A stretch of DNA of 64,000 nt from Clostridia bacterium (GCA_045590195.1 JAZNQN010000044.1:19186-83185); one strand, 5' to 3'; shown: positions 36,916-61,632, counted from the stretch's first letter. Program-made: numbers and translations. The notes: a model not told the origin generated them from the sequence alone.

Positions 36916-36927
36916 ATTGCGCCCTCC

Positions 36928-37602: not shown

Positions 37603-37621
37603 CAGTAGTATCTCCTTTTTC

Positions 37622-40859: not shown

Positions 40860-42844
40860 ATTGCATCCACCTCCGCTAAAATTTGTGCATTTTTAAAGCC
40901 TTTTAAATCCATTGCACCTGATGGACAGGCAACTGTACAAGCACCGCAGCCCTGACAAACAGCTTCATTAACCTGAGCTACGCGGCGCATTTTTGTTGTT
41001 CTGTTTGGCATACGGAACTCTTTAACTACATAAGTTATTGCACCATATGGGCAAACTCTTTCGCAACTACTGCATCCGTTACACATCATTTCGTCTGATG
41101 CGGCAATACAAGGATTACCAAGAAGTTTATCTTTGCATAAAAGGCCGATAACCTTTGAAGCCGCCGCTCCCGCCTGGGAAACAGTTTCAGGAATATCTTT
41201 CGGGCCTTGACAAGCACCTGACAAAAATACGCCTGCGGTTGGGCTTTCAACCGGACGAAGCTTTGGATGAGCCTCGGTAAAGAAATCGTTTGTATCCATA
41301 CTTGCAGTGAGCATTGTTGCAAGAGGACGAGCTGATTTATCAGGCTCGATTGCGGCTGCTAAAACAACCAAATCTGCATCAATGTTAATCTGTTTATTTG
41401 AAATTAAATCGCTTGCACGCACTTTAAGCTTATCGCCTTCAGGCATAATTTTGCCAACCATACCTTTAATGTAGTGAACACCAAATTCCTCGGTTGCTCT
41501 TCTGTAAAATTCGTCAAAGTTTTTACCGGGAGTTCTGACATCGATGTAGAATACTGTTACGTCAGTATCCGGATATTTATCACGAGTGAGCATTGCGTGT
41601 TTCGCTGTGTACATACAACAAATTTTAGAACAGTATTCCTTACCTTTTTCATTGCATGCATCGCATCTTGAACCTACGCACTGAACGAAAACGATTTTTT
41701 CAGGATGTTTTCCGTCTGAAGGGCGTAAGAGTTTACCTGCTGTTGGGCCTGCCGCATTGGTAAGACGCTCAAATTCGAGAGAAGTTATAACATCTTTCGA
41801 CTGGTTATAAGCATACTCATCAAATTTTTCCATACTGATAGGATTAAAGCCTGTTGCAACAACAATTGCACCATATTTTTCTTCTATAATTTCATCCTGT
41901 TGCTTATAATTGATAGCTCCTGCTGCACAAACCTTTTCACAAAGGCCGCACTTGCCATTTTTAAGCATATTACAGTAATCAGCATCAATTGTTGCAACCT
42001 TTGGAACTGCCTGAGCAAAAGGAATATAAACCGCTCTTCTCATATCCATTCCAAGGTTAAATTCATTAGGAACTTTCTTTTGAGGACATTTTTCTGTACA
42101 AAGGCCGCAACCTGTACATTTAGTTTCGTCAACAAATCTTGCTTTTTTCTTAATTTTTACATCAAAATTTCCTACAAAACCGGAAACTGCTTCAACTTCG
42201 CTATAGGAAAAAATTCTTATTTTATCGTTCTGTGCAACATCAACCATTTTTGGAGTTAAAATACAAGCCGCACAGTCAAGTGTTGGGAAGGTTTTATCAA
42301 TCTGCGCCATCTTGCCGCCGATTGTAGGATTTTTTTCAACTATATCTACCGGGAAACCTGCATCGGCAATATCAAGAGCTGTTTGAATACCTGCAATACC
42401 GCCACCGATAACCAAAGCACGCTTTGTAACAGGGCTTTCGCCAGGTGTAAGCGGAGCGTTAAGGTTAACCTTTGCAACAGCCGCTTTGCCCAAAATAATT
42501 GCTTTTTCAGTTCCTGTAGGGATATCTTTATGAACCCATGAGCACTGCTCACGAATGTTTGCAATTTCAACCATATAAGGGTTAATCCCTGCACTTTCAG
42601 CGGTTTTTCTGAAAGTATTCTCGTGCATACGGGGTGAACAGGAACAAATAACTATACCGGTAAGATTATGCTCTTTAATAGCATCTTTAATCATTTCCTG
42701 TCCCGCTTGGGAACACATATACTGATAGTTAGTGGAGAAAACAACACCAGGCTCTTTTTTCAAGGCTTCGCTAACTGCTTCAACATCAACAGTTGCCGCA
42801 ATATTGCTTCCGCACCAACATACGAATACACCAATTCTTTGCAT
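40850..42844 (-). CDS. hdrA: Heterodisulfide reductase subunit A-like flavoprotein
   Basis: It has an HdrA N-terminal Cys motif (GVFVCWCGSNIA), FAD binding (ALVIGGGIAGIQTALDIA), inserted ferredoxin motifs and a C-terminal 2x[4Fe-4S]. Confidence 0.8.
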   Translation of the reverse strand: MQRIGVFVCWCGSNIAATVDVEAVSEALKKEPGVVFSTNYQYMCSQAGQEMIKDAIKEHNLTGIVICSCSPRMHENTFRKTAESAGINPYMVEIANIREQCSWVHKDIPTGTEKAIILGKAAVAKVNLNAPLTPGESPVTKRALVIGGGIAGIQTALDIADAGFPVDIVEKNPTIGGKMAQIDKTFPTLDCAACILTPKMVDVAQNDKIRIFSYSEVEAVSGFVGNFDVKIKKKARFVDETKCTGCGLCTEKCPQKKVPNEFNLGMDMRRAVYIPFAQAVPKVATIDADYCNMLKNGKCGLCEKVCAAGAINYKQQDEIIEEKYGAIVVATGFNPISMEKFDEYAYNQSKDVITSLEFERLTNAAGPTAGKLLRPSDGKHPEKIVFVQCVGSRCDACNEKGKEYCSKICCMYTAKHAMLTRDKYPDTDVTVFYIDVRTPGKNFDEFYRRATEEFGVHYIKGMVGKIMPEGDKLKVRASDLISNKQINIDADLVVLAAAIEPDKSARPLATMLTASMDTNDFFTEAHPKLRPVESPTAGVFLSGACQGPKDIPETVSQAGAAASKVIGLLCKDKLLGNPCIAASDEMMCNGCSSCERVCPYGAITYVVKEFRMPNRTTKMRRVAQVNEAVCQGCGACTVACPSGAMDLKGFKNAQILAEVDAICK

Positions 42845-42858
42845 TTGCTTTCTCCTTT

Positions 42859-43251
42859 CTATTTACTATATTTTCTCATTGCACTTACAATTGCCTGTTG
42901 TGGCAACTGTTCATCTAAAAGTGAAGGTATTGCATCAGCTTTAAGATGATTTTCGCCCTGCTGACGTACTTTTAAAAGCCTTACTGCTTCAATAAGTTTT
43001 GCCGGCTCTACGCCTCTGGGACAACGCTCAACACAGGCAAAACAAGAAAGACATTTGAAAATTGAAGGCGACTCCATAAGTTTATCAACATCACCGTTTT
43101 CAACCATATAAACAAACTGATGAGGATGATATTCCATTTCATCATAAGAAGGACATGTACCTGTGCATTTGCCGCATTTCATACATTTTTTAGGATTAAC
43201 ACCGCTGATGCGCAAAATTTCGTTTGAAAGCTCTGTTTTATTCATTTGCAC
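42859..43251 (-). CDS. hdrC: Heterodisulfide reductase subunit C-like protein (2x[4Fe-4S])
   Basis: CMKCGKCTGTCP and CLSCFACVERCP. Confidence 0.7.
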   Translation of the reverse strand: MQMNKTELSNEILRISGVNPKKCMKCGKCTGTCPSYDEMEYHPHQFVYMVENGDVDKLMESPSIFKCLSCFACVERCPRGVEPAKLIEAVRLLKVRQQGENHLKADAIPSLLDEQLPQQAIVSAMRKYSK

Positions 43252-44032
43252 AGCCCTCCTTTACGCCAAGCGCCTGTGCTAAAAGCTCGGTAAAATATTT
43301 AATTTCTATACCGTCGGCGTGTTTTTCAAGATTATATTTGCAAAGTGGGCAAGCTGTTACTATCATATCTGCACCCATTTTTTTGGCACTTTCCAAAATA
43401 GCAATACTCTTCTTCTTTGCACTTTCACTATCTTCAAGAGCTATATATCCGCCGCAGCATTCGTTTCTGTATGGCGAAACTATTGCTTCCGCACCCATAG
43501 CTTTTACAAGATTTTCAAGAATCTGCGGATTTTCGCTGTCGTCCATCTGCATAACTTTACCAGGACGAAGCAAAAGACAACCATAATATGGAGCAATTTT
43601 TTTACCCTCAAGAGGATTTGTAACTTTTTTGGCAATTTCTTCAAAGCCAATTTCATCTCTCAAAAGCTCAAGATAATGAATAACCTCTGCATCTCCCTCA
43701 TAAGGCGTATCAAGATTCATATAGTTATTTGCTTTAAAAGCAAAATCGCTATCGTTATTAAACTGATAATTTGTTTGTTTTATTACATTATGGCAGGCAG
43801 CACAAACTGTTACAAGCTTCTGACCTTTTTCTTTTGCCTCTACAAGGGCACGAATTGAGGAAAGCTTTGTTGCAATTTCATCCTTCGAAGTTGTAAAAAC
43901 TCCGCCGCAGCACTGCCAGTTATTTATTTCTTCCAGATTAACCCCTAATGCCGCCGCACTTTCTCTTGCGTATTTATCAAGTTCTTTTGCTTTGGTTTTA
44001 AGAGTACAACCGGGATAATATGAAAAATTCAT
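43238..44032 (-). CDS. hdrB: Heterodisulfide reductase subunit B-like protein with two CCG domains
   Basis: The CCG motifs are WQCCGGVF and NECCGGY, and it starts YYPGC. The start was moved to the ATG at 44032 (MNFSYYPGC), which has an AAGGGAG RBS. Confidence 0.8.
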   Translation of the reverse strand: MNFSYYPGCTLKTKAKELDKYARESAAALGVNLEEINNWQCCGGVFTTSKDEIATKLSSIRALVEAKEKGQKLVTVCAACHNVIKQTNYQFNNDSDFAFKANNYMNLDTPYEGDAEVIHYLELLRDEIGFEEIAKKVTNPLEGKKIAPYYGCLLLRPGKVMQMDDSENPQILENLVKAMGAEAIVSPYRNECCGGYIALEDSESAKKKSIAILESAKKMGADMIVTACPLCKYNLEKHADGIEIKYFTELLAQALGVKEGCANE

Positions 44033-44054
44033 ACCTAAACTCCCTTCTGCAAAA

Positions 44055-45431
44055 TTATACCATCTGTTCAGGATGGAACACTTCGTCAAATTTTTCTTCG
44101 GTTAAAAAGCCAAGCTCGATACAAGCCTCTTTAAGAGAAATATTGTCTTTATAAGCTTTTTTAGCTGTTTTAGCCGCATTTTCATAACCGATATAAGGGT
44201 TAAGCGCAGTAACAAGCATAAGTGAATTATGAAGATTATGATGCATTTTTTCGCGGTTTGCCTTAATGCCTACTGCACAGTTTTTGTTAAATGAAACAAT
44301 GGCTTCTGCCATAAGACGTGCCGACTGCAAAAAGTTATATATGCATACAGGCATAAATACATTAAGTTCAAAGTTACCCTGTGAAGCTGCCATAGAAACA
44401 GCAACATCATTACCCATTACCTGAACGGCAACCATTGTTACCGCTTCACACTGAGTTGGGTTAACTTTACCCGGCATAATTGATGAGCCCGGTTCATTTT
44501 CAGGGATGAAAATTTCTCCAAGGCCATCACGAGGACCGCTTGCAAGCCAACGGATATCGTTTGCTATTTTCATCATATCGCAGGCAAGGGCTTTAATTGC
44601 ACCATGTGCAAAAACAAGCTCGTCTTTTGAAGTTAATGCGTGAAATTTATTCTCAGCAGTTACAAATGGTTTTCCTGTTATTTTCGAAACCTCTGCCGCA
44701 ACGCCTTCTGAAAAACCTTTTGGAGCATTAAGTCCTGTTCCAACTGCAGTTCCGCCAAGTGCAAGTTCACAAAGCGGCTTTACGCTTTGCTTCAAAAGCT
44801 CTACATCTTTCTGGAGGCTTGATCTCCAGCCGCTGATTTCCTGGCTGAATTTTATTGGAGTTGCATCCTGAAGATGTGTTCTTCCGCTTTTTACTATATC
44901 TTCGTTTTCTTTTTCAAGGCGTGAAAAAGTATCGATAAGAGTTTGGACAGCAGGAATAAGTTTATCTTCTATCATCAAAACTGCGGAAATATGCATAGCT
45001 GTAGGGAAAGTATCGTTTGACGACTGGCTCATATTAACATCATCATTAGGATGAAGAATACTTTTGCCCGCAATCTGATTTCCACGGTTTGCAATTACTT
45101 CGTTTGCATTCATATTCGACTGAGTGCCGGAGCCCGTTTGCCATACAACAAGAGGAAAATGGCTATTAAGCTTGCCGCTTATAACCTCATCGCAAGCACT
45201 GGAAATTGCCGAAAGTTTTTCTTCAGTCATTTTTTCGGGTTTCAAAGCGTGATTTGCGATTGCTGCAGCTTTTTTCAAAATGCCGAATGCATGTGTAATT
45301 TCACGTGGCATTGTTTCAATATTTACACCGATTTCAAAATTTTCGTGACTTCTCTGGGTTTGAGCCGCCCACAACCTGTCGGCAGGAACTTTAACCTCTC
45401 CCATCGAGTCGTGTTCAATACGATAATCCAT
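44055..45431 (-). CDS. fumC: Class II fumarate hydratase
   Basis: [16 protein letters not shown] (the FumC-type SS-loop) and full-length similarity. Confidence 0.85.
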
Positions 45432-46482: not shown

Positions 46483-46500
46483 TTGATAATTTTTTAACAA
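46483..46500. promoter_or_regulatory. Candidate Rex (redox-sensing repressor) operator, TTGATAA-N4-TTAACAA
   Basis: 17 of 18 positions match the Clostridial Rex consensus TTGTTAA-N4-TTAACAA. It lies 77-94 nt upstream of the mdh start. Confidence 0.4.
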
Positions 46501-46518
46501 TCTTTTTTAAAAAGCTAA

Positions 46519-46542
46519 CTCTATATTTAAATATAGAGTTTT
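46519..46542 (-). terminator. Palindrome/terminator downstream of the 480-aa hydrogenase-like gene
   Basis: Perfect inverted repeat AACTCTATATTT/AAATATAGAGTT. On the minus strand it is followed by GTTAGCTTTTT. Confidence 0.45.
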
Positions 46543-46546
46543 AGCA

Positions 46547-47989
46547 TTATATTATACTGTTTGCATCACTCACGGCGTTATATATAGTTTTGTCTGCGGC
46601 CTTTTTTCCGAAGTTATCTATCATATTTTTATCGCGCGATGTGTGAGTAAGGCACCCTGCCCCACCAATACAACCACCAACACAAGCCATACCTTCTATA
46701 AAGTTTGCATCGAGCATCCCTTTGCTTTTCTTCAGAAGGTTTATTTTACACTCTTCAATTCCGTCGCACGAAATTGCATTAAGTGTAAAGTCGGTTACTC
46801 CTTTTTCTTTAAGCCCCTGTGCAACTGCATCGGCAAGGCCACCACAACGGGCAAAAATTCTTCCGAAATACGATGCGCCGTCAAGTTCGCTTTCTTCAAG
46901 AGAAGTAATATCTATATCGCGGCTGTCAAAAAGCGCCTGAAGCTCTTCAAAAGTTAAAACAGTATCAACATATTTTGAAACTTCTGCTTTCTGTGCCTCA
47001 GCTTTTTTTGCAGTACATGGACCGATAAAAATAACTTTTGCACTTTCATCGTGTTCTTTAATGTATTTTGCAATAGTTGCCATTGGCGAAAGATTATGTG
47101 AAATATTTTCAGAAAGGTTATCAAAATTTTGCTCAATATATTTTACAAACGCAGGGCAACAAGAGCTTGTTAAAAATCTTTTTTCTGCAAGCTCCTCTGC
47201 TTCGGATGCTGCAACCATATCAGCGCCAAGTGCAGCCTCAACAACATTGAAAAATCCGAGTTCTTTAATACCTGTCACAACCTGACCAAGCCTTGCATAG
47301 TTAAACTGACTTGAAATTGTAGGTGCAACAACGGCATAAATATTATACTTTGTATTATTTTCGCTACCTTTTAAAAGGTCGATTGCATCGAGAATAAATG
47401 ATTTATCTGTAATTGCGCCAAATGGGCACTGATATACACAGGCTCCACACGCAATACATTTATCATCAAGAATTTTTGCCGACATATCTACATTCGTTTC
47501 AATTGCATCCACCTTGCAAGCGCTTTGGCACGGACGACGGTAGTTTGCAATTGCGTTGAACGGACAAACTTTTGCGCAGGCACCACAGTTTTTACACTTG
47601 GTTTTATCAATGTGCGCTTTTGGGTTTTCATCAAAAGTTATGGCACCAAATTTGCAAACATCTTCACATCTGTGTGCCAGGCATCCGCGGCATGAATGAG
47701 TTACCTCGTATCCGCCCATAGGACATTCATCGCAGGCAATACTGATAACTTCAATTACATTTTTATTCCTTTTGTTACCACCCATCGCCATTTTAACTCT
47801 TTTTGCAAGAATGGCTCTTTCTTTATAAACGCAGCAACGCATAGTTGCCTCTTTCCCGGGCACAAGTATTTCCGGGATGTCGGATATATTTTCCATAAGA
47901 GTACCTGCCCAGTACAGACGGGCAACTTCTCTTAATACTTTATATTTCAGGTGTTGAACTTTAGTATCAAACTTTCTCATAATATTCAC
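46547..47989 (-). CDS. [FeFe]-hydrogenase-like protein (480 aa) with N-terminal ferredoxin-like clusters and variant H-cluster motifs
   Basis: L1 is TSSCCPAF, L2 is IGPCTAKKAE and L3 is EGMACVGGCIGGAGC. Two 4Fe-4S ferredoxin motifs lie upstream. Confidence 0.7.
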   Translation of the reverse strand: MNIMRKFDTKVQHLKYKVLREVARLYWAGTLMENISDIPEILVPGKEATMRCCVYKERAILAKRVKMAMGGNKRNKNVIEVISIACDECPMGGYEVTHSCRGCLAHRCEDVCKFGAITFDENPKAHIDKTKCKNCGACAKVCPFNAIANYRRPCQSACKVDAIETNVDMSAKILDDKCIACGACVYQCPFGAITDKSFILDAIDLLKGSENNTKYNIYAVVAPTISSQFNYARLGQVVTGIKELGFFNVVEAALGADMVAASEAEELAEKRFLTSSCCPAFVKYIEQNFDNLSENISHNLSPMATIAKYIKEHDESAKVIFIGPCTAKKAEAQKAEVSKYVDTVLTFEELQALFDSRDIDITSLEESELDGASYFGRIFARCGGLADAVAQGLKEKGVTDFTLNAISCDGIEECKINLLKKSKGMLDANFIEGMACVGGCIGGAGCLTHTSRDKNMIDNFGKKAADKTIYNAVSDANSII

Positions 47990-47990
47990 C

Positions 47991-49163
47991 TTAAAAATAA
48001 CTTACTTTAATTCTTTTACCCATTTTTTCAAGATGTTTGGATAACTCTTCTACCATATTCATTTTGATATTAAAATTTATGGGCAAATCAGGATTTTGAT
48101 GAGCAGGATTTACAGCTCTTCCAACATAAAAGTTAATATCGGTTGCTTCTTCAAACAAAAGTTGAGAAATTAACGACGCAGCATCTTTACCCATTTCCCA
48201 GTCATTATAAAGGCGGTTTTCATTAACAAAGTCCTCGGCATATTTAAGCACATGGCTCATTGTAATTACACCTTCAGTTACCAGGTCAACGCCATCAATT
48301 ATCGCTACTGGCGGAATTCCTTGTTTTTCAAACTTCAAAGTTGGTTTTACTTCCTTGCCAAGGTATTCGGCTGCAATTGAAGATGTTGTACCGCCGCAAA
48401 CAATGTGTTTACCCTCTTTTGCAAAGAAAAGTGCCATCATTTTTCTGCAATCATCTCTGTTTGATGGTGGACCAAAAACAAGGTTTATAGGCGCTCTTTT
48501 TCTTATTCTTACAACGCAGGCACTGGTATCATCGCCCGGTTCTCCGCCATAAAGTTTATTACATTCATCAGTTAAAATGGTTGCCAGGGTTTTTGCGTTA
48601 TATCCGGCACATTCAATAGTTTCCATAAACTCAGTTATCTGCTCAGTTTTCCAACCGAAATTATAAATATTTCCAATTCCTGCATGAGGACAACCATCGC
48701 TCATTGCAAGAAATAAATCGTTTTCGCAAAGCTTTATTCTCGAACGAAGCATCTTTTTATCGCCAATTGAAAATGTTTCCTGGTTATATTCAAAGTTCTT
48801 TCCGTCGCGAAGCAAAATTACAGGCGGATTATCATATTGAATAATTTCTGCAAACTCATTATTAACAATATGAATAATTGTAAATGTTGAATATGCCACT
48901 CCCCTTTGCGAACAAACGGGAAGTGTTGCTGCAATAGTTGAAACGCAGTCTTCAATTGACAGCCCTGCTGCCAGAAGAGTTGAAATTATTTTAGAAGTAA
49001 GTGTTGACAAAATGCCAGCTTTAACACCACTTCCAAGCCCATCGGCAAGAACAATTACAGATGAATTTTCGCCTGAGCTTACAACATCTATATGATCGCC
49101 GCAAAGCTCCTCACCGTGGTGGTTTAATGAGCGATATCCAATATCAGCACACAAATCATTCAT
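47991..49163 (-). CDS. SpoIIE/PP2C-type serine phosphatase with a C-terminal domain of about 170 aa of unknown function
   Basis: PP2C motifs CGDHIDV, VLADGLGSG and GDDTSACVV. Its start overlaps the hydS stop by 8 nt. Confidence 0.7.
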   Translation of the reverse strand: MNDLCADIGYRSLNHHGEELCGDHIDVVSSGENSSVIVLADGLGSGVKAGILSTLTSKIISTLLAAGLSIEDCVSTIAATLPVCSQRGVAYSTFTIIHIVNNEFAEIIQYDNPPVILLRDGKNFEYNQETFSIGDKKMLRSRIKLCENDLFLAMSDGCPHAGIGNIYNFGWKTEQITEFMETIECAGYNAKTLATILTDECNKLYGGEPGDDTSACVVRIRKRAPINLVFGPPSNRDDCRKMMALFFAKEGKHIVCGGTTSSIAAEYLGKEVKPTLKFEKQGIPPVAIIDGVDLVTEGVITMSHVLKYAEDFVNENRLYNDWEMGKDAASLISQLLFEEATDINFYVGRAVNPAHQNPDLPINFNIKMNMVEELSKHLEKMGKRIKVSYF

Positions 49164-50838
49164 CAGCTATTGTCTCCTTAAGTTTTGTAAGCGCAATTTT
49201 TGTTTCAGCAGCTGTTTCGCCAAGTAACGATGCAATTTCCTGAACAATGCGCATTTGCTTTTCAACAACTTTATCTGCTACTTCGATGGTTTCTGTCCCA
49301 ATTCTCTCTTTACGCTCTTTCTCTCTTTCCTCGGCAGTTACATCACGCAAAATGCAAATTATAATTCTATACTCTTTATCCGGAATAATTGTTTTTTCAA
49401 CATATTTGTCGTATTCTGCAAGATATTTTCTTCTGTTAGAAATCCTTCTTCCGCTTTCCATTGCATTTATAAACGGAGTAGGGTCTAAAATTCTTACAAC
49501 AGGCTCACCCATTACATCGGAAACAGATTTTACGTTCAAAATTTTTCTTGCGGAGTTGTTGATAAGCTGAACTTCAAGTTGTTCGTTTACAACAATAATT
49601 CCGTTAGGTGTGTTGTTAACTATTGTATCTGAGAAAACTTCAGCTTTATCTTTTAAAAACGGCAAACACATTGAAAGGTCGGCCTTTCCGTGGTATATTG
49701 CAATTGCTTTTTCACGGCAGGTATCATATCCACAGGAGCCACAGTTAAGCTCGTCTTCAGGACGAACTTTTCCCATTGTTTTCAGTACTTTGACTATTTC
49801 TTCATCGGCAGGTGGCTGAAGTCGTCTTTCAATAGGCTCAATGCCTTTTTGAAGTTCAGTAAAATCAGGCTGTGAAATTTCAAAGTCTTTTTCGCCTGCA
49901 TAATCAGAAACAGCTTTAAATTCACTCACAGGAGCTGAATTGAATTTTTCCATTATCGGACCGCAAATACAGCTTCCGCTGCAGGCCGACATTTCAATAA
50001 AGCATCCGTGTACTTTTCCGCTTTCAATATCACGAAGCGCTTCAATACAGTTATTAGTGCCATCAATGGCCATATATGTATATTCAGGAAGTCGCTCGTC
50101 CATTGTTTTTAATATACCTCCCGTTGTCGGGAAAAGCCTTGCACGGCTTTTTTCGGTAACATCTAGCTCTTTTTCAATCTCTATATTTTCTTCTTTGAAC
50201 CAGTTTGTAAGTTCATCGAAGGTTAAAACTGCGTCTACAATATCTCCGTAGTAATCACCCTCATCTTTTTTGGAAAGGCAGGGGCCGATAAATACTGTTT
50301 TCGCACCTGGATATTTCTTTTTAATTTCTATGGAATGAGCCTGCATAGGCGACATTGTGTTTGAAAGGTAAGGCAAAACAGAAGGAAAATACTTCTGAAC
50401 AAGCAAATTAACACTGTGGCAACAGGAAGAAATAAGAATATCAGGCTTTTCTTCACGAAGTTTGCGCTGGTATTCGTTTTTTACAATTGTTGCACCAATA
50501 GCAGTTTCTTCAGCATCGAAAAAGCCAAGTTTTAATAAAGCCTTTTTCATTGCCTCTATTCCGACACCATCATAATTTGCAATAAAAGACGGAGCAAGAG
50601 AAGCAACAACCTGTTCACCATTTGCAATCATTACTCTTACTTTTTCGCGCTGGTCTGTAATTTCTTTAGCATTTTGCGGACAAACAACAAAGCATTGACC
50701 GCATAAAATACACTCATTGCCAATAATATGTGCCTGATTACCTGAGAAACGAATGGCTTTTACGGGACAATGTCTAATACATTTATAACAGTTTTTACAG
50801 TTTGATTTTTTAAGTTTAAGCCATTCCACTATGCTCAC
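49156..50838 (-). CDS. hydS: Putative sensory [FeFe]-hydrogenase (HydS-like). It has N-terminal ferredoxin clusters, a variant H-cluster domain, an extra Cx2Cx4Cx16C motif and a C-terminal PAS domain.
   Basis: L1 is SSCCHSV, L2 is IGPCLSKKDE and L3 is EMSACSGSCICGP. CGSCGYDTC...C is present. The C-terminus has a PAS-like fold. A PP2C phosphatase is adjacent. Confidence 0.7.
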   Translation of the reverse strand: MSIVEWLKLKKSNCKNCYKCIRHCPVKAIRFSGNQAHIIGNECILCGQCFVVCPQNAKEITDQREKVRVMIANGEQVVASLAPSFIANYDGVGIEAMKKALLKLGFFDAEETAIGATIVKNEYQRKLREEKPDILISSCCHSVNLLVQKYFPSVLPYLSNTMSPMQAHSIEIKKKYPGAKTVFIGPCLSKKDEGDYYGDIVDAVLTFDELTNWFKEENIEIEKELDVTEKSRARLFPTTGGILKTMDERLPEYTYMAIDGTNNCIEALRDIESGKVHGCFIEMSACSGSCICGPIMEKFNSAPVSEFKAVSDYAGEKDFEISQPDFTELQKGIEPIERRLQPPADEEIVKVLKTMGKVRPEDELNCGSCGYDTCREKAIAIYHGKADLSMCLPFLKDKAEVFSDTIVNNTPNGIIVVNEQLEVQLINNSARKILNVKSVSDVMGEPVVRILDPTPFINAMESGRRISNRRKYLAEYDKYVEKTIIPDKEYRIIICILRDVTAEEREKERKERIGTETIEVADKVVEKQMRIVQEIASLLGETAAETKIALTKLKETIADE

Positions 50839-51095
50839 TCCCCTATATTTAATACTTTAAGTATATGTTCCTTAAAAAAGTCATCGAACTTATGTATTGT
50901 AAGTCCTACAAAAACTTCATCGTTTATCTGAACGGTTACGCCTTCGCGATTGCATTTTCCAATGCAAAAGCTTCCGGCAACAGAAACTTTGTCGCCAATA
51001 TTATAATCACTTACTGCTTTTTCAAAAGCATTTGCTATTTCATATGAACCTTTAATATGACAGGAACTGCCAATACAAACTAATACTTTAAGCAA
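50835..51095 (-). CDS. Thioredoxin-like [2Fe-2S] ferredoxin of 86 aa
   Basis: CIGSSC...C(x3)C Cys spacing, as in the NuoE C-domain or Trx-like ferredoxins. Confidence 0.55.
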   Translation of the reverse strand: MLKVLVCIGSSCHIKGSYEIANAFEKAVSDYNIGDKVSVAGSFCIGKCNREGVTVQINDEVFVGLTIHKFDDFFKEHILKVLNIGE

Positions 51096-51107
51096 AAATA
51101 AATCATT

Positions 51108-51152
51108 CCTTTTTGATTTTTTAAAAGGCCGCAGTGCGGTTGCACCGCGGCC
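51108..51152 (-). terminator. Possible weak terminator or attenuator between the two small ferredoxin genes
   Basis: GGCCGCAGTGCGGTTGCACCGCGGCC hairpin. The T run on the minus strand is only 4 nt. Confidence 0.35.
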
Positions 51153-51160
51153 ATATGTTA

Positions 51161-51409
51161 TTATTTTACAAGAGGAAGTATATTATCTTTGAAAAACGCT
51201 CTTGCCTCTTTTTCGGTAATTCGGAATGTTTTGTCATCTACTTTTACAGAAACGCCAACATTTGTACAATTTTTCATACAAAATGACGCCGCAAGTTCAA
51301 TTTTATCATGAAGATTATTATCTTCAATCATATGCTGAAATGATGACACAACATTATGTGCTCCGTTTAAATGACACGCGCTTCCAATGCATACACTAAT
51401 TTTTATCAT
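51161..51409 (-). CDS. Thioredoxin-like [2Fe-2S] ferredoxin of 82 aa
   Basis: CIGSAC...CMKNC. Paralogous to the gene at 50835-51095. Confidence 0.55.
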   Translation of the reverse strand: MIKISVCIGSACHLNGAHNVVSSFQHMIEDNNLHDKIELAASFCMKNCTNVGVSVKVDDKTFRITEKEARAFFKDNILPLVK

Positions 51410-51411
51410 TA

Positions 51412-53109
51412 TTATTCCTCCGATTTTTTCGCATAGTTCACATGTAAAAGTTTATGAACTTTACCTTTAATAATATTGTTATAAAGTGACGAAACAATTG
51501 GGTTTTCTTCTGAACGACGTATGCTTAAGAGTCTGTCAGATTTATAAAGTCCGCTCTTTCTGGCAGCAATCTCGTGCTGCATTGCAAATGGCTGACCGCC
51601 ACCATTTATACATCCGCCAGGGCAAGCCATAACTTCAATAAAGTCAATCTGTTCGCCGTCTTTTACGCGCTGAAGAACTTTTTCAGCATTTGCAAGACCG
51701 CTTACAACTACAATATGAAGTTCTCTTTCTCCATACATAAGTTTAAATTCTTTAATGCCATCAAGGCCACGCTGACCGCAATCTGCAATAGAAAGAAGTC
51801 CGCTTCTTGATTTATTTGCAGCAACACGGCGAAGTACAGCTTCTGTAACACCACCTGTTACACCAAATATTACACCTGCACCTGAAATAGTACCAAATGG
51901 CATATCGACAGCTTCAGGCTCTAAGGTATCAAACATAATACCTGCTTCTTTAACCATTGAAACAAGTTCCTGAGTTGTAATAACTGCATCAACATTAGGC
52001 TGACCGTCCATTTTGAACTCATCTCTTGCAGCTTCAAACTTTTTAGCTGTACAAGGCATTACTGCAACATGGAACATTTTTCTTGAAGCTTCTTTTGCCT
52101 GGTCTTTCAAAATTGAAGCCATCATCTGCATTGGGCTGCGGCAAGTTGATACATTAGGAAGAAATTCAGGGAATTTCTTTTCGCAGAACTGAATCCAGCC
52201 AGGGCAGCATGAAGTAATAAGTGGAAGATTTTCGCCTTTTTCAAGTTTAGTAAGAAATTCTTCACTTTCTTCCAAAACAGTTAAATCTGCTCCGAGAGAA
52301 GTATCATAAATTTCATCAAATCCCATACGATGAAGAGCGGCAACAATTTTACCCATTACATCTTCCCCGTCGCGAACACCAAGTTCTTTACCAAGTGCAA
52401 CTCTTACCGCAGGAGCAACCTGAACAGTTGTTTTAACTTCAGGGTCGCTTATTGCTTTCCAAACGGGAGCAATATTATTTTTAACAACAAGAGCACCTGT
52501 TGGACATACTGCAACACACTGACCACAGCCAACACATGGGCTTTCTGAAAGTGGTTTATTAAACGCAGTGCTGATTGTCATATTAGAGCCACGGTATGCA
52601 AAGTCGATAGCGCCAACATTCTGAACCTCGTTACACATTCTCACACAGTCGCCGCAAAGAATACATTTGCCTGTATCTCTTGTAATGCATACGGAAGACG
52701 TATCTTCATCTTTTGTTGAAACTGCAGTATTAGGGAAACGAACGCCTTCAATATTAAAGCGCATTGCCAAATCCTGCAATTTACATTTTGCGTTGTTCTC
52801 ACAGGTTGTACAGTCGCGGCAATGGTTAGCAAGAAGAAGTTCGAGAATATTTTTTCTGTATCTTCTAAGGCGCTCTGTATTTGTTTTTATGTTCATACCT
52901 GCACGAGGAGGTGTTGAACAAGCGGCATCAAGTCCGCCTCTTTCGTTTTCTACCATACACATACGGCATGCACCGTAAACCGAAAGCTCGGAATGATAGC
53001 AGAATGTAGGCATTTTTACGCCTGTTTTATTTATAAGTTCAAGAAGATTTTTCTCTCCGTTAATTTCAACGGGGATACCGTCGATTGTCAAATACTGTTT
53101 CTCAGTCAT
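51412..53109 (-). CDS. hydA: [FeFe]-hydrogenase catalytic subunit HydA, set 1 of the HydABC type
   Basis: It has an N-terminal plant-type [2Fe-2S], ferredoxin clusters, and canonical H-cluster motifs TSCCPGW, MPCTAKKFE and EVMACPGGCINGGG. Confidence 0.85.
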   Translation of the reverse strand: MTEKQYLTIDGIPVEINGEKNLLELINKTGVKMPTFCYHSELSVYGACRMCMVENERGGLDAACSTPPRAGMNIKTNTERLRRYRKNILELLLANHCRDCTTCENNAKCKLQDLAMRFNIEGVRFPNTAVSTKDEDTSSVCITRDTGKCILCGDCVRMCNEVQNVGAIDFAYRGSNMTISTAFNKPLSESPCVGCGQCVAVCPTGALVVKNNIAPVWKAISDPEVKTTVQVAPAVRVALGKELGVRDGEDVMGKIVAALHRMGFDEIYDTSLGADLTVLEESEEFLTKLEKGENLPLITSCCPGWIQFCEKKFPEFLPNVSTCRSPMQMMASILKDQAKEASRKMFHVAVMPCTAKKFEAARDEFKMDGQPNVDAVITTQELVSMVKEAGIMFDTLEPEAVDMPFGTISGAGVIFGVTGGVTEAVLRRVAANKSRSGLLSIADCGQRGLDGIKEFKLMYGERELHIVVVSGLANAEKVLQRVKDGEQIDFIEVMACPGGCINGGGQPFAMQHEIAARKSGLYKSDRLLSIRRSEENPIVSSLYNNIIKGKVHKLLHVNYAKKSEE

Positions 53110-53113
53110 TTTC

Positions 53114-54988
53114 TCAAACCTCCTTTATAGCCTTGAATGCACAAGCATCAATACAGCTACCGCAACGAATACATTTTGAAAGGTTAATTGTAAATGGTTC
53201 CTTAATTTTTCCTTCGATAGCTTCAACAGGACACTGACGGGCACATTTTGAGCAACCTTTACAAAGCTCAGGGTCAATAACAATTGTTTTAAGTTTCTGA
53301 CATTCACCCGCTGGACAACGCTTGTCGTAAATATGAGCTTCATATTCATCACGGAAGTTTTTAATTGTACTTACTACCGGAGAAGGAGCACTTTTGCCAA
53401 GTCCGCAAAGAGCTGTAGCCGAAATTGTATCAGCAAGCTCGAGAAGGAGTTCAATATCTCCATCCTGACCTTCGCCTGCGACAATTCTTTCAAGAATCTG
53501 AAGCATTCTCTTTGTACCTTCACGGCAAGGAACGCATTTACCACAGCTTTCGTTCTGTGTAAAGTTCATAAAGAATCTTGCAACCTCTACCATACAGGTA
53601 TTTGAGTCCATAACAACAAGTCCGCCGGAGCCTATCATAGCTCCAACCTTTTTAAGTGTATCAAAGTCAAGAGGAAGGTCTAAATGTTCTTTTGTAAGAC
53701 AAGCACCTGAAGGGCCGCCTATCTGTACGGCTTTAAATTCGCCGTCGCCTTTCATACCGCCACCGATATCAAAAATAATCTCGCGGAGAGTTGTTCCCAT
53801 AGGAACTTCGATAAGGCCTGTATTTGCAATGTTACCTGTAAGAGCAAAAGCTTTTGTGCCTGCACTTCCCTCTGTTCCGATACCGAGATACCAGTCTGCG
53901 CCACGGTTTATAATTTCAGCAACGTTTGCATATGTTTCAACATTATTAAGTACTGTTGGTTTATCAAAAAGACCATGTTCAACAGTTCTTGGAGGTTTAA
54001 CTCTCGGGAAACCACGTTTACCTTCGATTGAAGCAGTAAGCGCACTACCTTCGCCACAAACAAACGCACCTGCACCACGGCTGATGTGCATTTTAAACGA
54101 AAAGCCTGTTCCGAGAATATTTTCGCCAAGAAGGCCTAGTTCTTCTGCCTGAGTTATTGCATTTTTAAGTCTGTCAACAGCGAGAGGATATTCAGCACGA
54201 ACATATATGTAACCTTCACATGCGCCACAGGCAACACCTGCAATCATCATACCCTCAAGCATTCTGTGAGGGTCACCTTCCATAATACTTCTGTCCATAA
54301 ATGCACCGGGGTCACCCTCGTCACCATTACAAACAACATATTTAATAGGCTCTTTCTGGCGTTTAACCTGTTCCCATTTTCTTCCGGCAGGAAATCCGCC
54401 GCCCCCACGTCCGCGAAGGTTTGATTTACTGATTTCAGATACAATGTCATCAGCAGTCATATCAAAAAGTGCTTTTTCAAAAGCGGAATAACCACCAATG
54501 GCAATATATTCACGAATTGATTCGGCATCAATTTTACCGCAGTGTTCCAAAACGATACGGGTTTGCTGTTTATAAAAAGGAATTTCATCCTGTTTTTTGT
54601 ATGAAACGCCATCTTTTTTGCAGGCAAGGCGGTCAATGGGTTCTCCTTTAAGAACTGTTTTTTCAATAATTTCTTCACAGTCTTCAACTTTTACTTTTGT
54701 GTAAAGCCAACCCTGTGGGTCGATTCTGAGAAGTGGGCCCATTTCACAAAAACCATGGCAACCGCTCTTTTTAAGGCCTATGCTTTCATCGTGGGGATCA
54801 ACTTCAAGCTCCACTGCAACTTTAATGCCTCTTTCATCACAAAGTTCTTTAAGTCTGTCATAAATTTTAAGTGAGCCACCGGCAACGCAACCTGTTCCGG
54901 CACAAACAATGATTTTTTCGGTTTGTAGTTCATAAGACTTTTTCACTTCTTCACGAAGCTTCATAAAATCTTCTCTGTTTTTAAGCAT
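53114..54988 (-). CDS. hydB: NuoF-like NAD(P)H-binding flavoprotein subunit HydB, set 1
   Basis: It has an N-terminal Trx-like [2Fe-2S], FMN/NADH-binding Gly-rich motifs (GRGGGGFP), a NuoF-type [4Fe-4S] and a C-terminal 2x[4Fe-4S]. Confidence 0.85.
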   Translation of the reverse strand: MLKNREDFMKLREEVKKSYELQTEKIIVCAGTGCVAGGSLKIYDRLKELCDERGIKVAVELEVDPHDESIGLKKSGCHGFCEMGPLLRIDPQGWLYTKVKVEDCEEIIEKTVLKGEPIDRLACKKDGVSYKKQDEIPFYKQQTRIVLEHCGKIDAESIREYIAIGGYSAFEKALFDMTADDIVSEISKSNLRGRGGGGFPAGRKWEQVKRQKEPIKYVVCNGDEGDPGAFMDRSIMEGDPHRMLEGMMIAGVACGACEGYIYVRAEYPLAVDRLKNAITQAEELGLLGENILGTGFSFKMHISRGAGAFVCGEGSALTASIEGKRGFPRVKPPRTVEHGLFDKPTVLNNVETYANVAEIINRGADWYLGIGTEGSAGTKAFALTGNIANTGLIEVPMGTTLREIIFDIGGGMKGDGEFKAVQIGGPSGACLTKEHLDLPLDFDTLKKVGAMIGSGGLVVMDSNTCMVEVARFFMNFTQNESCGKCVPCREGTKRMLQILERIVAGEGQDGDIELLLELADTISATALCGLGKSAPSPVVSTIKNFRDEYEAHIYDKRCPAGECQKLKTIVIDPELCKGCSKCARQCPVEAIEGKIKEPFTINLSKCIRCGSCIDACAFKAIKEV

Positions 54989-55466
54989 TGTTTATCTCCT
55001 CTCTGAGTTTTTTCAAAAGCTCTGATGCTTTATCCGGTGTCATTGCAGAATATACAACATCGTTTACTGTAAGTACCGGAGCAAGACCACAAGCGCCGAG
55101 ACATGATACTGTTTCAAGTGTAAAGTTTAAGTCGTCGGTAGTTTTTTTGCTTTCGCTAAGTCCAAGTTCACTGCGAAGACGCTCCAAAATCGGAATGGAA
55201 CGGCGAACATGACAAGCTGTTCCGTCGCATATTTTTATTACATATTTTCCCTTTGGTTCAAGAGAAAAGTTTTCGTAAAATGTTGCTACGCTGAAAATCC
55301 TAACTTCAGGAATGTTAAGCTGTTTTGCAAGATGTGGAAAAATATCTTTTGGCAAGTAATGATATTCTTCCTGAATTTCCTGCAAAATTGCGATAATTGC
55401 CTGTGGATTTTTGTCGTATTTATCGACTATTTTATCTACGATTGCAAAATCAAACTGTTCACTCAT
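54981..55466 (-). CDS. hydC: NuoE-like [2Fe-2S] subunit HydC, set 1
   Basis: Trx-like fold with CDGTAC...C...CLGAC. Confidence 0.85.
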   Translation of the reverse strand: MSEQFDFAIVDKIVDKYDKNPQAIIAILQEIQEEYHYLPKDIFPHLAKQLNIPEVRIFSVATFYENFSLEPKGKYVIKICDGTACHVRRSIPILERLRSELGLSESKKTTDDLNFTLETVSCLGACGLAPVLTVNDVVYSAMTPDKASELLKKLREEINNA

Positions 55467-55488
55467 AGTTTTACTCCTTTGTTTTTAA

Positions 55489-56898
55489 TTATTTATTCTT
55501 AAGGTATTCATCGATTGCCTTGGCAGCAGTTTTACCTGCGCCCATAGCAGATATAACCGTTGCAGCACCTGTTACTGCATCGCCGCCTGCATAAACTGCA
55601 TCGCGTGATGTAAGGCCATCTTCATTTACAATAATTCCGCCTCTGTTATTAACTTCAAGGCCCTTTGTAGTATCTTTTATAAGCGGGTTAGGCGAAGTAC
55701 CAATAGACATTACAACTGCATCAACCTCTAACTCATATTCTGAACCCGGAATTTCTACAGGACGTCTTCTTCCTTTTTCATCAGGTTCGCCAAGTTCCAT
55801 TTTCATAAGGCGAATACCTGTTACAAAACCGTTTTTAGGATCTCTTGGATCCTCAGGATTGTTATAACCCAGAATTTCAACCGGGTTTCTGAGAAGCTGA
55901 AAATCGATTCCCTCTTCTTCAGCATGTTCAACTTCTTCCCTTCTTGCAGGAAGTTCTTCCATTGAACGACGGTAAATAATATAAACCTTCTCAGCTCCAA
56001 GTCTTAAAGCAGTTCTTGCAGCATCCATAGCAACATTACCGCCGCCTACAACTGCAACACGGCCACCTTTCATAATAGGTGTGCTGCCATCTTCACGATA
56101 AGCTTTCATGAGATTGCTTCTTGTTAAGAATTCGTTTGCAGAATAAACGCCTTTAAGAGATTCGCCGGGAATTCCCATGAAATTTGGAAGGCCTGCACCG
56201 CTGCCTACAAAAACAGCTTCATAGCCCATATCAAAAAGCTCGTCGATTGTAAGGGTTTTACCGATTACAACATTAGGCTCAACATTTACGCCAAGTTCTT
56301 TTAAAGTTTCAACTTCTTTAGCAACTATTGCCTTTGGAAGACGAAATTCAGGAATACCATAAACAAGTACACCGCCTGCTGTGTGAAGTGCTTCATAAAC
56401 TGTTACGTCGTAACCTTTTTTAGCAAGGTCACCTGCACAGGTAAGGCCTGAAGGGCCGCTACCAACAACGGCAACTTTGTGGCCGTTAGACAATGGTTTT
56501 TCAGCCTTTTCCTTGGCGTTTTCATTATGCCAGTCAGCAACAAAACGCTCAAGTCGGCCAATGCCTACAGGCTCAAACTTAATTCCAAGAGTACATTTAC
56601 TCTCACACTGTGTTTCCTGTGGGCAAACTCTTCCGCAAACCGCAGGAAGTGAAGATGATTTTGAAATAGACTGATATGCACCTTCAAAATCGCCATTTTT
56701 AATATGAGTAATAAAATCAGGAATATCAATATTTACAGGACAGCCTGCAACGCAAGGCTGGTTTTTACAATTTAAGCATCTTTCAGCTTCTCCTACAGCC
56801 ATTTCCTGAGTATAACCAAGAGCAACTTCATTGAAGTTATGGCCCCTCACATCAGCAGGCTGTGTTGGCATTTCATGCTTTTTAGGATTTATTGCCAT
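55489..56898 (-). CDS. nfnB: NfnB / GltD-like subunit (SudA-like; NADH-dependent reduced ferredoxin:NADP oxidoreductase large subunit)
   Basis: It has N-terminal 2x[4Fe-4S] (CLNCKNQPC...CP), two dinucleotide folds (VAVVGSGPSG and VAVVGGGNVAMD) and is about 470 aa. It is 22 nt upstream of hydC. Confidence 0.75.
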   Translation of the reverse strand: MAINPKKHEMPTQPADVRGHNFNEVALGYTQEMAVGEAERCLNCKNQPCVAGCPVNIDIPDFITHIKNGDFEGAYQSISKSSSLPAVCGRVCPQETQCESKCTLGIKFEPVGIGRLERFVADWHNENAKEKAEKPLSNGHKVAVVGSGPSGLTCAGDLAKKGYDVTVYEALHTAGGVLVYGIPEFRLPKAIVAKEVETLKELGVNVEPNVVIGKTLTIDELFDMGYEAVFVGSGAGLPNFMGIPGESLKGVYSANEFLTRSNLMKAYREDGSTPIMKGGRVAVVGGGNVAMDAARTALRLGAEKVYIIYRRSMEELPARREEVEHAEEEGIDFQLLRNPVEILGYNNPEDPRDPKNGFVTGIRLMKMELGEPDEKGRRRPVEIPGSEYELEVDAVVMSIGTSPNPLIKDTTKGLEVNNRGGIIVNEDGLTSRDAVYAGGDAVTGAATVISAMGAGKTAAKAIDEYLKNK

Positions 56899-56923
56899 TT
56901 TAAATTCCTCCTTCTAAATCAGT

Positions 56924-57772
56924 TCAGGCATTTTTGAAAAGATTGCAAGCTTCTTCATATGCGTGACGCTCAAAATCTGCATACATTCTGCCTCTTGACA
57001 TTGCCTCGTCAAAATCGATTTCGTAGGCATTAAATTCAGGCCCGTCAACACATGCAAACTTTGTAACCTTTTTGCCATCCTGGTTCAAAGTAAGTCGGCA
57101 ACCGCCGCACATACCAGTTCCGTCGATCATAATAGGATTCATTGAAGCTGTTACAGGAACACCAAAAGGTTTGGCAGTTAGAGTAACAAACTTCATCATA
57201 ATAAGCGGACCAATTGTGATGATAATGTCAAATTTTTCTCCGCCTTCAAGCATTTCTTTAAGCGGAACAGTTACGTTACCGTGACGACCATAAGAACCGT
57301 CATCAGTCATTAAAATAAGGTTGTCCGAGCATTCTCTGAACTCATCTTCCAAAATTACAAGATTTTTATCTCTGAAACCGATAATGCTTGTAACTTCAGC
57401 CCCAAGGCGATGAAATTCCTGCGCAACAGGCATAGCAATAGCACAGCCAACGCCTCCGCCTACGATACAAACTTTTTTAATACCTTCAGTATGAGTTGCT
57501 CTTCCAAGAGGACCAACAAAATCTTCAATGAACTCACCTTCGTTTTTCTGACCGAGTTTTGCAGTTGTTCCTCCAACTATTTGAAAAATTATTTTAACTG
57601 TGCCATCTTCCTTGTTGCAACCTGCAACTGTAAGCGGTATTCTTTCGCCTTCGCTGTCGACACGTAAAATAATAAACTGACCTGGTTTTGCCTTTGCTGC
57701 AACTAACGGAGCTTCAATTTCCATCTGGGTTACAGTTGGGTTTAACACTCTTTTACGCACAATTTTGTACAT
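56924..57772 (-). CDS. nfnA: NfnA / SudB-like small subunit (FNR/PyrK-like FAD protein with a [2Fe-2S])
   Basis: About 280 aa with an FNR-like fold and a C-terminal Cys cluster (CGGCRLT...C). Confidence 0.75.
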   Translation of the reverse strand: MYKIVRKRVLNPTVTQMEIEAPLVAAKAKPGQFIILRVDSEGERIPLTVAGCNKEDGTVKIIFQIVGGTTAKLGQKNEGEFIEDFVGPLGRATHTEGIKKVCIVGGGVGCAIAMPVAQEFHRLGAEVTSIIGFRDKNLVILEDEFRECSDNLILMTDDGSYGRHGNVTVPLKEMLEGGEKFDIIITIGPLIMMKFVTLTAKPFGVPVTASMNPIMIDGTGMCGGCRLTLNQDGKKVTKFACVDGPEFNAYEIDFDEAMSRGRMYADFERHAYEEACNLFKNA

Positions 57773-57974
57773 AAAAATTCACCTCTCTATATTTTAAATA
57801 ATTGTTATATTACATACATAACTTTACATAATATATAATAACACAATTACACTTTTTTGCATATTATAAAATTTGCATATCCGTTATATACTTATAGGCA
57901 TATGGTTATTTCGTTTTTACATAACAACAGCGCGATACATTTATTATGTACCGCGCTGCTTAAAATTATTTAAA

Positions 57975-59711: not shown

Positions 59712-59730
59712 AATTATCTGCTCCCCTCTC

Positions 59731-61611: not shown

Positions 61612-61632
61612 ACCTCCAAGTTCAAATCTGGT

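Follow-up and report, generated by a model that had tools for sequence, protein, structure and literature searches.

An hfs-type cassette with a putative hydrogen-sensing hydrogenase and a serine phosphatase in a Clostridia genome

When a sensory-type [FeFe] hydrogenase, a SpoIIE-type phosphatase and a second hydrogenase are encoded side by side and no kinase gene is seen next to them, it may be asked whether the locus is an unusual kinase-less arrangement, as an earlier note on this DNA had proposed, and what such a set of genes would control. The locus considered here is a cassette of five genes on the minus strand at 46547-51409 of a 64-kb stretch of DNA from a Clostridia bacterium (the whole stretch is called the window below). 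We find that it is an ordinary hfs-type hydrogen-sensor hydrogenase cassette (two hfsA-like ferredoxins, hfsB, hfsC and hfsD) and not a kinase-less novelty. Most likely, in our judgment, it serves to adjust the hydrogen output to the cell's hydrogen or redox state. The five genes are listed below, with protein lengths in amino acids (aa).

51161..51409, minus strand: fdx82, 82-aa thioredoxin-like [2Fe-2S] ferredoxin, hfsA-like (PF01257, E 2e-4)
50835..51095, minus strand: fdx86, 86-aa thioredoxin-like [2Fe-2S] ferredoxin, hfsA-like (PF01257, 28.7 bits, cut-off 24.8)
49156..50838, minus strand: HydS (hfsB-like), 560 aa, putative sensory [FeFe] hydrogenase of group C (M2f), recognized by Pfam domains and L1-L3 motifs
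47991-49163, minus strand: PP2C phosphatase (hfsC-like), 390 aa, SpoIIE-type
46547..47989, minus strand: hfsD-like monomeric group-B [FeFe] hydrogenase, 480 aa (TIGR04105, PF02906)

A gene order shared with published hfs loci

The junctions of the cassette are tight. Only 2 nucleotides (nt) lie between the stop codon of hydA1, the gene directly upstream, and the start of fdx82; the TGA stop codon of fdx86 and the GTG start codon of the HydS gene share the letters GTGA; and 1 nt separates the stop codon of the phosphatase gene from the listed GTG start of the 480-aa hydrogenase gene. The HydS and phosphatase genes overlap by 8 nt (ATGAATGA), just as the earlier note had read, and are translationally coupled.

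The cassette was compared with the best 80 related loci in species-level genomes, which belong to Oscillospiraceae, Acutalibacteraceae or Ruminococcus-like gut and rumen bacteria with 69-73% identity. The order ferredoxin-ferredoxin-HydS-phosphatase-HfsD, with the HydS/phosphatase overlap, is kept in approximately 70 of these 80 loci, and an orthologue of fdx82 occupies the first position in most of them. Most of the exceptions are contig ends, and in one locus (L064) hydCBA replaces hfsD. Wherever the upstream DNA suffices, HydS adjoins the phosphatase gene and the overlap is conserved across the 80 loci, and distant loci, too, have an fdx86-type gene ahead of the gene for HydS or a PAS protein. 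The phosphatase itself matches at least 8000 protein clusters at 90% identity (all 120 among the matches listed are 389-391 aa long) and is encoded in at least 599 species-representative genomes. With regard to flanking genes, ldh lies between the phosphatase and the hfsD-like gene in seven of the related loci (L016, L018, L020, L042, L054, L068 and L079) and elsewhere flanks the cassette on either side, a placement in keeping with the shift to lactate that hfsC and hfsD deletions are reported to cause.

The same kinds of genes in the same order have been described in Thermoanaerobacterium, whose hfs operon encodes a putative ferredoxin (hfsA), a hydrogenase-PAS fusion (hfsB), a serine phosphatase (hfsC) and a monomeric group-B [FeFe] hydrogenase (hfsD) (PMC4898469, PMC11837493, PMC5707799). 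In addition, HydDB describes the [FeFe] group C3 as 'phosphatase-linked (putative)' and group B as putative ferredoxin-dependent H2 producers (PMC5037454). Thus, given the published hfs order and the C3 description, a hydrogenase gene after the phosphatase gene is the normal arrangement. The earlier view that a serine kinase/HATPase gene follows in described hfs loci does not agree with the published operon, in which hfsC is followed by the hydrogenase gene hfsD, and the idea of an unusual kinase-less module gives way to the hfsABCD order, the C3 description and the 70 or so related genomes. It is worth noting that the two papers name hfsC differently: PMC11837493 has a serine phosphatase, whereas PMC4898469 speaks loosely of a 'histidine kinase', a label that may be the source of the kinase in the earlier note.

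The two hydrogenases and the phosphatase

HydS combines an H-cluster domain with three further elements that follow it.

49957..50613, minus strand: H-cluster domain of HydS, residues 76-294 (PF02906, E 7.7e-48), with altered L1, L2 and L3 in alignment with both HydA proteins of the window
49660..49749, minus strand: Cx2Cx4Cx16C [4Fe-4S] motif, residues 364-393 (PF04060, E 2.5e-10)
49333..49629, minus strand: PAS domain, residues 404-502 (PF00989, PF13426)
49159..49278, minus strand: terminal helix, residues 521-560, a proposed output or interaction element

The Pfam matches run in the order Fer4 (4Fe-4S dicluster, residues 10-57), Fe_hyd_lg_C (76-294), FeS PF04060 (364-393) and PAS (404-502). 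The degenerate loops SSCCHSV, GPC (in IGPCLSKKDE) and EMSACSGSC, which had been named as hallmarks of a sensory HydS together with the four-Cys cluster and the PAS domain, are legible in the translation. These motifs are kept in 74 HydS orthologues, so HydS is not a decaying gene. The columns of the four-Cys motif, written CGSCGYDTCx16C in HydS, reach a conservation of 0.91-0.92 among 75 sequences. The Cys residues that bind the cluster are retained, TSCCPxW is absent, the Met of L2 is replaced by Gly and that of L3 by Ser, and the C-terminal four-Cys [4Fe-4S] motif is followed by the PAS domain. Judged by its architecture, and with the published distinction between groups C and D in mind (PMC13104023), HydS is assigned to group C/C3.

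The most conserved block of HydS in the 75 sequences is the terminal helix (0.92-0.96), which exceeds the H-cluster motif blocks and has no Pfam match. Its motif was also found in one distant HydS and in stand-alone PAS proteins of about 170 aa that precede the same phosphatase family. Phosphorylation of Thr residues in the helix was considered and rejected: neither Thr is conserved in the stand-alone PAS family, where 25% have Pro, Ser or Ala at one position and 18% have Phe or Tyr at the other.

The gene after the phosphatase encodes a second [FeFe] hydrogenase, and the TSSCCPAF motif by which the earlier note had singled it out holds up. The 480-aa protein matches TIGR04105 ('monomeric [FeFe] hydrogenase, B1') with 555 bits against a cut-off of 450, its residues 7-449 covering positions 1-461 of the 462 of the profile, and matches PF02906 with E 3e-60. 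Its loops read TSSCCPAF (L1), GPC (L2) and EGMACVGGC (L3), and LTSSCCPAF is present in 57 of 60 orthologues. The three-Cys motif TSCCCP, the mark of B2/M2a, is replaced by TSSCCPAF in this protein. Both the profile match and the motif place the protein, as far as sequence can tell, in the B1-type model and not in the three-Cys subgroup.

The phosphatase consists of two domains of similar conservation.

48501..49163, minus strand: PP2C/SpoIIE-type catalytic domain, residues 1-221, with the metal-binding Asp residues intact
47994..48500, minus strand: Rossmann-like alpha/beta C-terminal domain (C-domain), residues 222-390, with the loops GPP, CGGTT, PP, GxDLVTEGxxT and VGxAxNPAH and residue K367

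The N-terminal part is a bona fide SpoIIE/RsbX-type PP2C domain. The Pfam family SpoIIE (PF07228) matches residues 34-220 only, with 52.7 bits against a cut-off of 25, matches to PDB sequences have E values of 2e-18 to 5e-9, and the residues D23, D41, D156, D211 and D212 are invariant in 45 homologues with 34-63% identity to the protein of the window. A second, small PP2C_2/SpoIIE-like phosphatase of 300 aa is encoded on the plus strand at 9294-10196 beside a YunB sporulation gene, a context unrelated to the cassette.

The C-domain had been called uncharacterised, at about 170 aa, in the earlier note, and a domain search bears this out: residues ~222-390 have no Pfam match in any of the 45 diverse members and no NCBIfam or PDB sequence match. 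The AlphaFold2 model of the full-length protein has a predicted local distance difference test score (pLDDT) of 90.5 and a predicted template modelling (TM) score of 0.90, and that of the isolated C-domain a pLDDT of 91.7; the predicted fold is a three-layer alpha/beta fold of Rossmann type. Foldseek gave methylglyoxal synthase as the top neighbour (E 1.2e-3, TM scores 0.38/0.49). An MGS-like identity was nevertheless rejected: hhalign against MgsA aligned only 27 columns around GGTT (E 0.065, probability 0.85%), and no Pfam MGS match was found in the 45 members. Because the profile-profile alignment with MgsA is not significant, we label the C-domain an unclassified Rossmann-like domain, and as such it goes beyond the published descriptions that we found.

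Column identity is 0.49 in the C-domain versus 0.53 in the catalytic domain, which suggests that the former is under selection and conserved like the latter. Its conserved residues (G231-P232, G257-G258-T-T, P284-P285, G291/D293/L294/T296/E297/G298/T301, G348/N352 and K367) sit in loops right behind predicted beta strands. In Rossmann-like folds, such loops are the usual site for phosphate-bearing ligands, and we infer from the model that those of the C-domain may bind one. The domain forms 1039 clusters at 50% identity, has the same position in the full-length matches listed (~380-400 aa) and was found only in this phosphatase family, fused to the phosphatase. Apparent stand-alone C-domain proteins of about 160 aa were rejected, the one examined in its gene context (L085) being a fragment of a full-length gene with in-frame TAG codons, and other proteins of odd length proved to be chimeric or frameshifted gene calls. 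In that Logan contig (L085:5317-6489), the phosphatase gene ends in TGA and, apart from two TAG codons that interrupt its frame at conserved positions, is intact; it could represent stop-codon recoding or a pseudogene.

Candidate kinase, hydrogenase-free relatives and proposed mechanism

The earlier observation that no kinase or STAS target is visible was confirmed by a Pfam scan of all open reading frames (ORFs) of at least 110 aa in the window, which detected no STAS, RsbW/SpoIIAB-type kinase, Pkinase or APH protein. The sole HATPase is that of an ordinary HAMP-HisKA two-component kinase (5724-7139), encoded with an OmpR-type regulator beside an HtrA-like protease. Clustering of the flanking ORFs of the 80 related loci revealed no STAS or RsbW-type gene among the recurring neighbours either, and a partner-switching system of this type is not indicated in these neighbourhoods.

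The same clustering showed that in 48 of the 80 loci, roughly two thirds of those whose upstream DNA is long enough, the cassette is immediately preceded by a co-oriented gene for a 249-aa protein of APH/RIO/protein-kinase fold. The protein contains the catalytic-loop motif HGDLNPSN and matches Pfam APH with 51 bits (cut-off 23.2) and, more weakly, RIO1 and Pkinase. In one locus (L030:5064-5813) its gene ends 12 nt before the first ferredoxin gene, and genes for AdhE, LysR or Rex often come before the kinase-like gene. Further recurrent neighbours of the 80 loci are LysR (26), AdhE (22) and Rex (21), and also ldh, nfnAB and fumC. In the window, hydC1-hydB1-hydA1 occupies the upstream slot in which relatives have the kinase-like gene, and a tblastn search with the 48 kinase-like neighbours against the window produced only noise (E ~1e-3, on the non-coding strand at 38592-38861). 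Since a kinase-fold gene sits upstream in 48 of the 80 loci, a kinase-fold partner does exist in the lineage, and the APH-fold protein is a candidate for the cognate kinase. The refuting case named in the earlier note, a cognate kinase encoded elsewhere in a conserved regulon, is thus borne out in part, by the relatives.

More distant members of the phosphatase family provide a different view of the cassette. The gene context was examined for three such members with enough flanking DNA and for two stand-alone PAS proteins found from one of them. One locus (L087) has the order hydC-hydB-hydA-fdx-HydS-PP2C with no hfsD and shows the same join to hydCBA as the window. In L088, L089, L090 and L091, CooC-CooS-CooF is followed by genes for a ferredoxin-like protein of 84-101 aa (2Fe-2S in type wherever this can be recognized), for a PAS protein of 169-177 aa that stands alone and for a 383-aa phosphatase, and then by NuoE-/NuoF-like genes; the latter are followed, in L089, L090 and L091, by an Fe-S protein that lacks an H-cluster and by ACS/CdhD. 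Three of these hydrogenase-free modules, each between CooS/CooF and NuoE/NuoF-like genes, have the following coordinates.

L088:6163-10559: hydrogenase-free module
L089:7712-12982: hydrogenase-free module
L090:7702-12911: hydrogenase-free module

Among the hydrogenase-free modules next to ACS/CdhD, one, for example, occurs in a Spirochaetota metagenome-assembled genome. The stand-alone PAS proteins are a real family (940 matches) and end in a HydS-like helix (AQEVISRQMKTAQEIARLLGETTAETK). A PAS-bearing gene precedes the phosphatase gene in every locus examined, including those in which the PAS protein stands alone without a hydrogenase domain. The conserved core, in this handful of loci, appears to be a small ferredoxin, a PAS domain with its helix and this phosphatase, with the hydrogenase domain as one optional input; we found no description of such a core in the literature. 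It is possible, though we hold it to be somewhat doubtful, that the real unit is a widespread three-gene redox-signalling module composed of a thioredoxin-like [2Fe-2S] ferredoxin, a PAS protein with the helix (R/K)QM(R/K)xxQE(I/V)AxLLGE... and a PP2C phosphatase with a family-specific Rossmann-like domain. Such a module would plug into NuoE/NuoF-type ferredoxin/NAD-dependent operons (HydABC, group-B hydrogenases, CODH/ACS), the H-cluster domain would be an optional input, and the Rossmann-like domain would either sense a metabolite or nucleotide or supply the missing kinase activity.

For the cassette of the window, the mechanism that we favor is as follows. HydS would bind H2 at an H-cluster whose altered surroundings (Met to Gly in L2, Met to Ser in L3) would make for slow turnover, and its state would be relayed through the C-terminal [4Fe-4S] cluster, the PAS domain and the near-invariant terminal helix to the phosphatase. 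The phosphatase would set the phosphorylation of a target protein, which in turn would govern how active the hfsD-like hydrogenase is or how strongly it is expressed; the same target might also control functions of the adjacent hydABC, of ldh or of adhE. The Rossmann-like C-domain could act as the regulatory module, either as a docking site for the PAS helix or a ferredoxin or as a pocket for a phosphate-bearing metabolite. In the simplest wiring, H2-bound HydS would inhibit the phosphatase, and the phosphatase would activate the hydrogenase at the level of activity or expression. A negative role of HydS and a positive role of the phosphatase toward the hfsD-like hydrogenase are suggested by the published genetics of hfsB, hfsC and hfsD and by the response of Ruminococcus albus hydA2. 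Deletion of hfsB raises hydrogenase activity and 'deregulates hfsD' (PMC5707799, PMC12288451), deletion of hfsC leads to the same lactate shift as deletion of hfsD with only slightly lower hfsD mRNA (PMC5707799), and overexpression of hfsD alone in a strain lacking hfsABCD reproduces the hfsB-deletion phenotype (PMC11837493). Moreover, in the presence of a partner organism that consumes the H2, the mRNA of R. albus hydA2 (a gene co-transcribed with hydS) falls 90-fold (PMC10838669). Overall, the hfs operon behaves genetically as a regulatory system acting on hfsD (PMC5707799, PMC12288451).

Several points weigh against this mechanism. To our knowledge, no substrate of the phosphatase is known in any organism, and the Pfam scan of ORFs of 110 aa or more turned up neither a STAS protein nor a serine kinase in the 64-kb window. 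The stand-alone PAS versions imply that the module need not sense H2. In addition, the orthology with hfsABCD (Tsac_1550-1553) is drawn from architecture and gene order.

Some of the same evidence can be read in other ways. HydS, the phosphatase and a Ser/Thr kinase might act on a DNA-binding regulator (Rex or LysR-type) or a sigma-factor switch that controls the hydrogenase, adhE and ldh genes, the hydrogenase protein itself not being the target. This would agree with the 90-fold change of R. albus hydA2 mRNA on H2 removal (PMC10838669) and with the 2-3 fold rise of adhE mRNA on deletion of hfsA or hfsB (PMC5707799), and a transcriptional output would also suit the genes that flank the cassette in relatives (the APH/RIO-fold kinase in 48 of 80, LysR in 26, AdhE in 22 and Rex in 21), the position of ldh inside or beside it in 21 of 80 loci, and the Rex-like boxes upstream of ldh and hydC2 in the window. 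We consider it unlikely all the same. Deletion of hfsC only slightly lowers hfsD mRNA and yet produces the hfsD-deletion phenotype (PMC5707799), neither the window nor any of the four distant loci examined has a regulator or kinase gene beside the cassette, and the Rex-box matches do not exceed chance (2 versus 1.36 expected).

It might also be supposed that Hfs is a structural multi-subunit hydrogenase, the sense in which it was first named. The ferredoxins would then join HydS and the hfsD-like protein in a single catalytic or electron-transfer complex, with the phosphatase as an accessory or assembly factor and not as a sensor's output. In favor of this are the translational coupling of all five genes, the constant presence of small ferredoxins, the direct continuation of hydCBA into the cassette in the window, and the lower hydrogenase activity after deletion of the whole hfs operon (PMC5707799). 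However, deletion of hfsB alone increases that activity (PMC5707799), hfsD alone restores the phenotype (PMC11837493), the ferredoxin-PAS-phosphatase triad occurs without a hydrogenase domain beside CODH/ACS genes, and the HydS motifs are without the residues typical of fast enzymes, all of which makes such a structural enzyme improbable. Least probable of all, to a degree that we would give it very little credence, is that the C-domain is itself the missing kinase or a nucleotide-dependent switch, so that the protein would be a self-contained kinase/phosphatase comparable to fused RsbU-RsbW or HPr kinase/phosphorylase. Although the triad has no kinase gene with it in the window or in the four distant loci, the domain is only found fused to this phosphatase, and it offers a beta-strand, Gly-rich loop (GGTT) and helix element together with the invariant residues E297, N352, D293 and K367 after predicted strands, it contains no Walker A or protein-kinase motif, its best structural neighbours are not kinases, and close relatives usually carry a separate APH-fold kinase gene.

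Surroundings of the cassette and comparison with known systems

The cassette is preceded by further hydrogenase genes, and two RNA hairpins lie within and behind it.

51412..55466, minus strand: hydC1-hydB1-hydA1, NuoE/NuoF/HydA electron-bifurcating-type hydrogenase operon directly upstream (Pfam, NCBIfam)
51123..51152, minus strand: GC-rich 11-bp hairpin followed by UUUU, within the 65-nt spacer of fdx82 and fdx86 (RNA fold -26.8 kcal/mol, z -5.4)
46509..46545, minus strand: AU-rich terminator-like hairpin followed by UUUUU, 3' of the hfsD-like gene (RNA fold z -3.5, 1 of 200 shuffles as stable)

The genes nfnA-nfnB-hydC1-hydB1-hydA1-fdx82 are contiguous in the window, within a larger redox block on the minus strand (51412-62121; hydC2-hydB2-hydA2, nfnA-nfnB and hydC1-hydB1-hydA1) that leads directly into the cassette, behind which ldh and fumC follow. 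In Thermoanaerobacterium, HfsD, HydAB and NfnAB are jointly required for the high-ethanol 'hydrogen cycling' phenotype (PMC11837493, PMC12288451), and the genes for this set are physically contiguous in the window. HydA2 (57975-59711) has TSCSPGW in place of TSCCPGW as its L1, while HydA1 of the window has the usual TSCCPGW; the former is a known variant, because it is also present in the solved bifurcating HydA1 of Acetobacterium woodii (7q4v). A 15-bp hairpin lies 3' of hydA2 (RNA fold z -5.9).

None of 200 shuffles was as stable as the hairpin in the fdx82/fdx86 spacer, which may serve for leaky termination or for processing. This hairpin is peculiar to the window: relatives lack it because their two ferredoxin genes, only 3-30 nt apart, have almost no spacer between them. 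The hairpin at 46509..46545 is the probable end of the operon, and ldh, which lies beyond it, has its own promoter-like site. Approximately 10 nt upstream of the first hexamer of this site there is a Rex-like palindrome (46483-46500, TTGATAATTTTTTAACAA), and another is found upstream of hydC2 (62167-62184, TTGTTAATATTATATCAA). As Rex operators, such matches are not above chance in number (canonical 20-mer, 10 versus 9.1 expected; clostridial 18-mer, 2 versus 1.36), and only their positions in promoter regions of typical Rex-regulon genes are suggestive.

Two further regions of the window were recorded. A cluster on the minus strand at 35308-44089 encodes HdrB-like (CCG domain), HdrC-like and HdrA-like proteins, MvhD (FlpD), Fe-S proteins and a DHODB-type FAD/NAD protein, and ends with a 535-aa FAD_binding_2 (fumarate-reductase-like) flavoprotein, which fumC and an Asp-Al_Ex permease gene adjoin. 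It may specify a heterodisulfide-reductase-type, flavin-based fumarate-reducing complex. Next to the HtrA-like protease and its two-component system, a 586-aa protein with S-layer-homology and serpin domains, i.e., a bacterial serpin, was noted (2444-4204), and phage-type integrase genes are located at the left end of the window (127-1889).

The window adds one more copy of a system that is very common in the H2 producers among gut and rumen Clostridia. This system decides how fermenters split electrons between H2, ethanol and lactate, and strains with a high ethanol yield are already made in an established way by deleting hfsB. For a system that genetics has addressed for fifteen years, four findings now provide handles on the substrate of the phosphatase, the role of its C-domain and the kinase: the APH-fold kinase candidate, the invariant HydS helix, the loops of the C-domain and the hydrogenase-free modules beside CODH/ACS genes.

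Among known systems, hfsABCD of T. saccharolyticum and T. thermosaccharolyticum (Tsac_1550-1553) has the gene order and the kinds of proteins seen in the window, whereas the window has two small ferredoxin genes, a direct join to hydCBA, and nearby nfnAB, a second hydCBA, ldh and fumC. Comparable to the window is the HydS-HydA2 unit of R. albus 7, in which a PAS-bearing putative H2-sensing hydrogenase is co-transcribed with a ferredoxin-dependent hydrogenase and for which signalling by Ser/Thr phosphorylation has been proposed (Zheng et al. 2014, summarised in PMC5707799 and PMC10838669). A Ser/Thr protein kinase gene is reported to be adjacent in R. albus 7; the window has none there, although 48 of the 80 relatives have the upstream APH-fold kinase gene. 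By architecture, HydS of the window resembles the HydDB group C3 and group C/M2f proteins, such as Thermotoga maritima HydS, in the altered surroundings of the H-cluster, the four-Cys cluster, the PAS domain and the adjacent Ser/Thr phosphatase (PMC5037454, PMC13104023, PMC10055695). The 480-aa hydrogenase shares with the characterised group-B enzymes CpIII and ToHydA the extra N-terminal Fe-S domains and an L1 loop that is one residue longer than in group A, but these group-B/B2 enzymes have TSCCCP where it has TSSCCP; an engineered Cys-to-Ser variant of ToHydA (TSSCCP) gave more H2 (bioRxiv 10.64898/2025.12.18.695218). Finally, the partner-switching phosphatases SpoIIE, RsbU and RsbX have a catalytic domain homologous to that of the phosphatase of the window, with the same metal-binding Asp residues. 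In contrast to SpoIIE and RsbU, the latter has no STAS substrate or RsbW/SpoIIAB-type kinase in its neighbourhood and carries its proposed regulatory domain at the C-terminus, as an unrelated, Rossmann-like domain.

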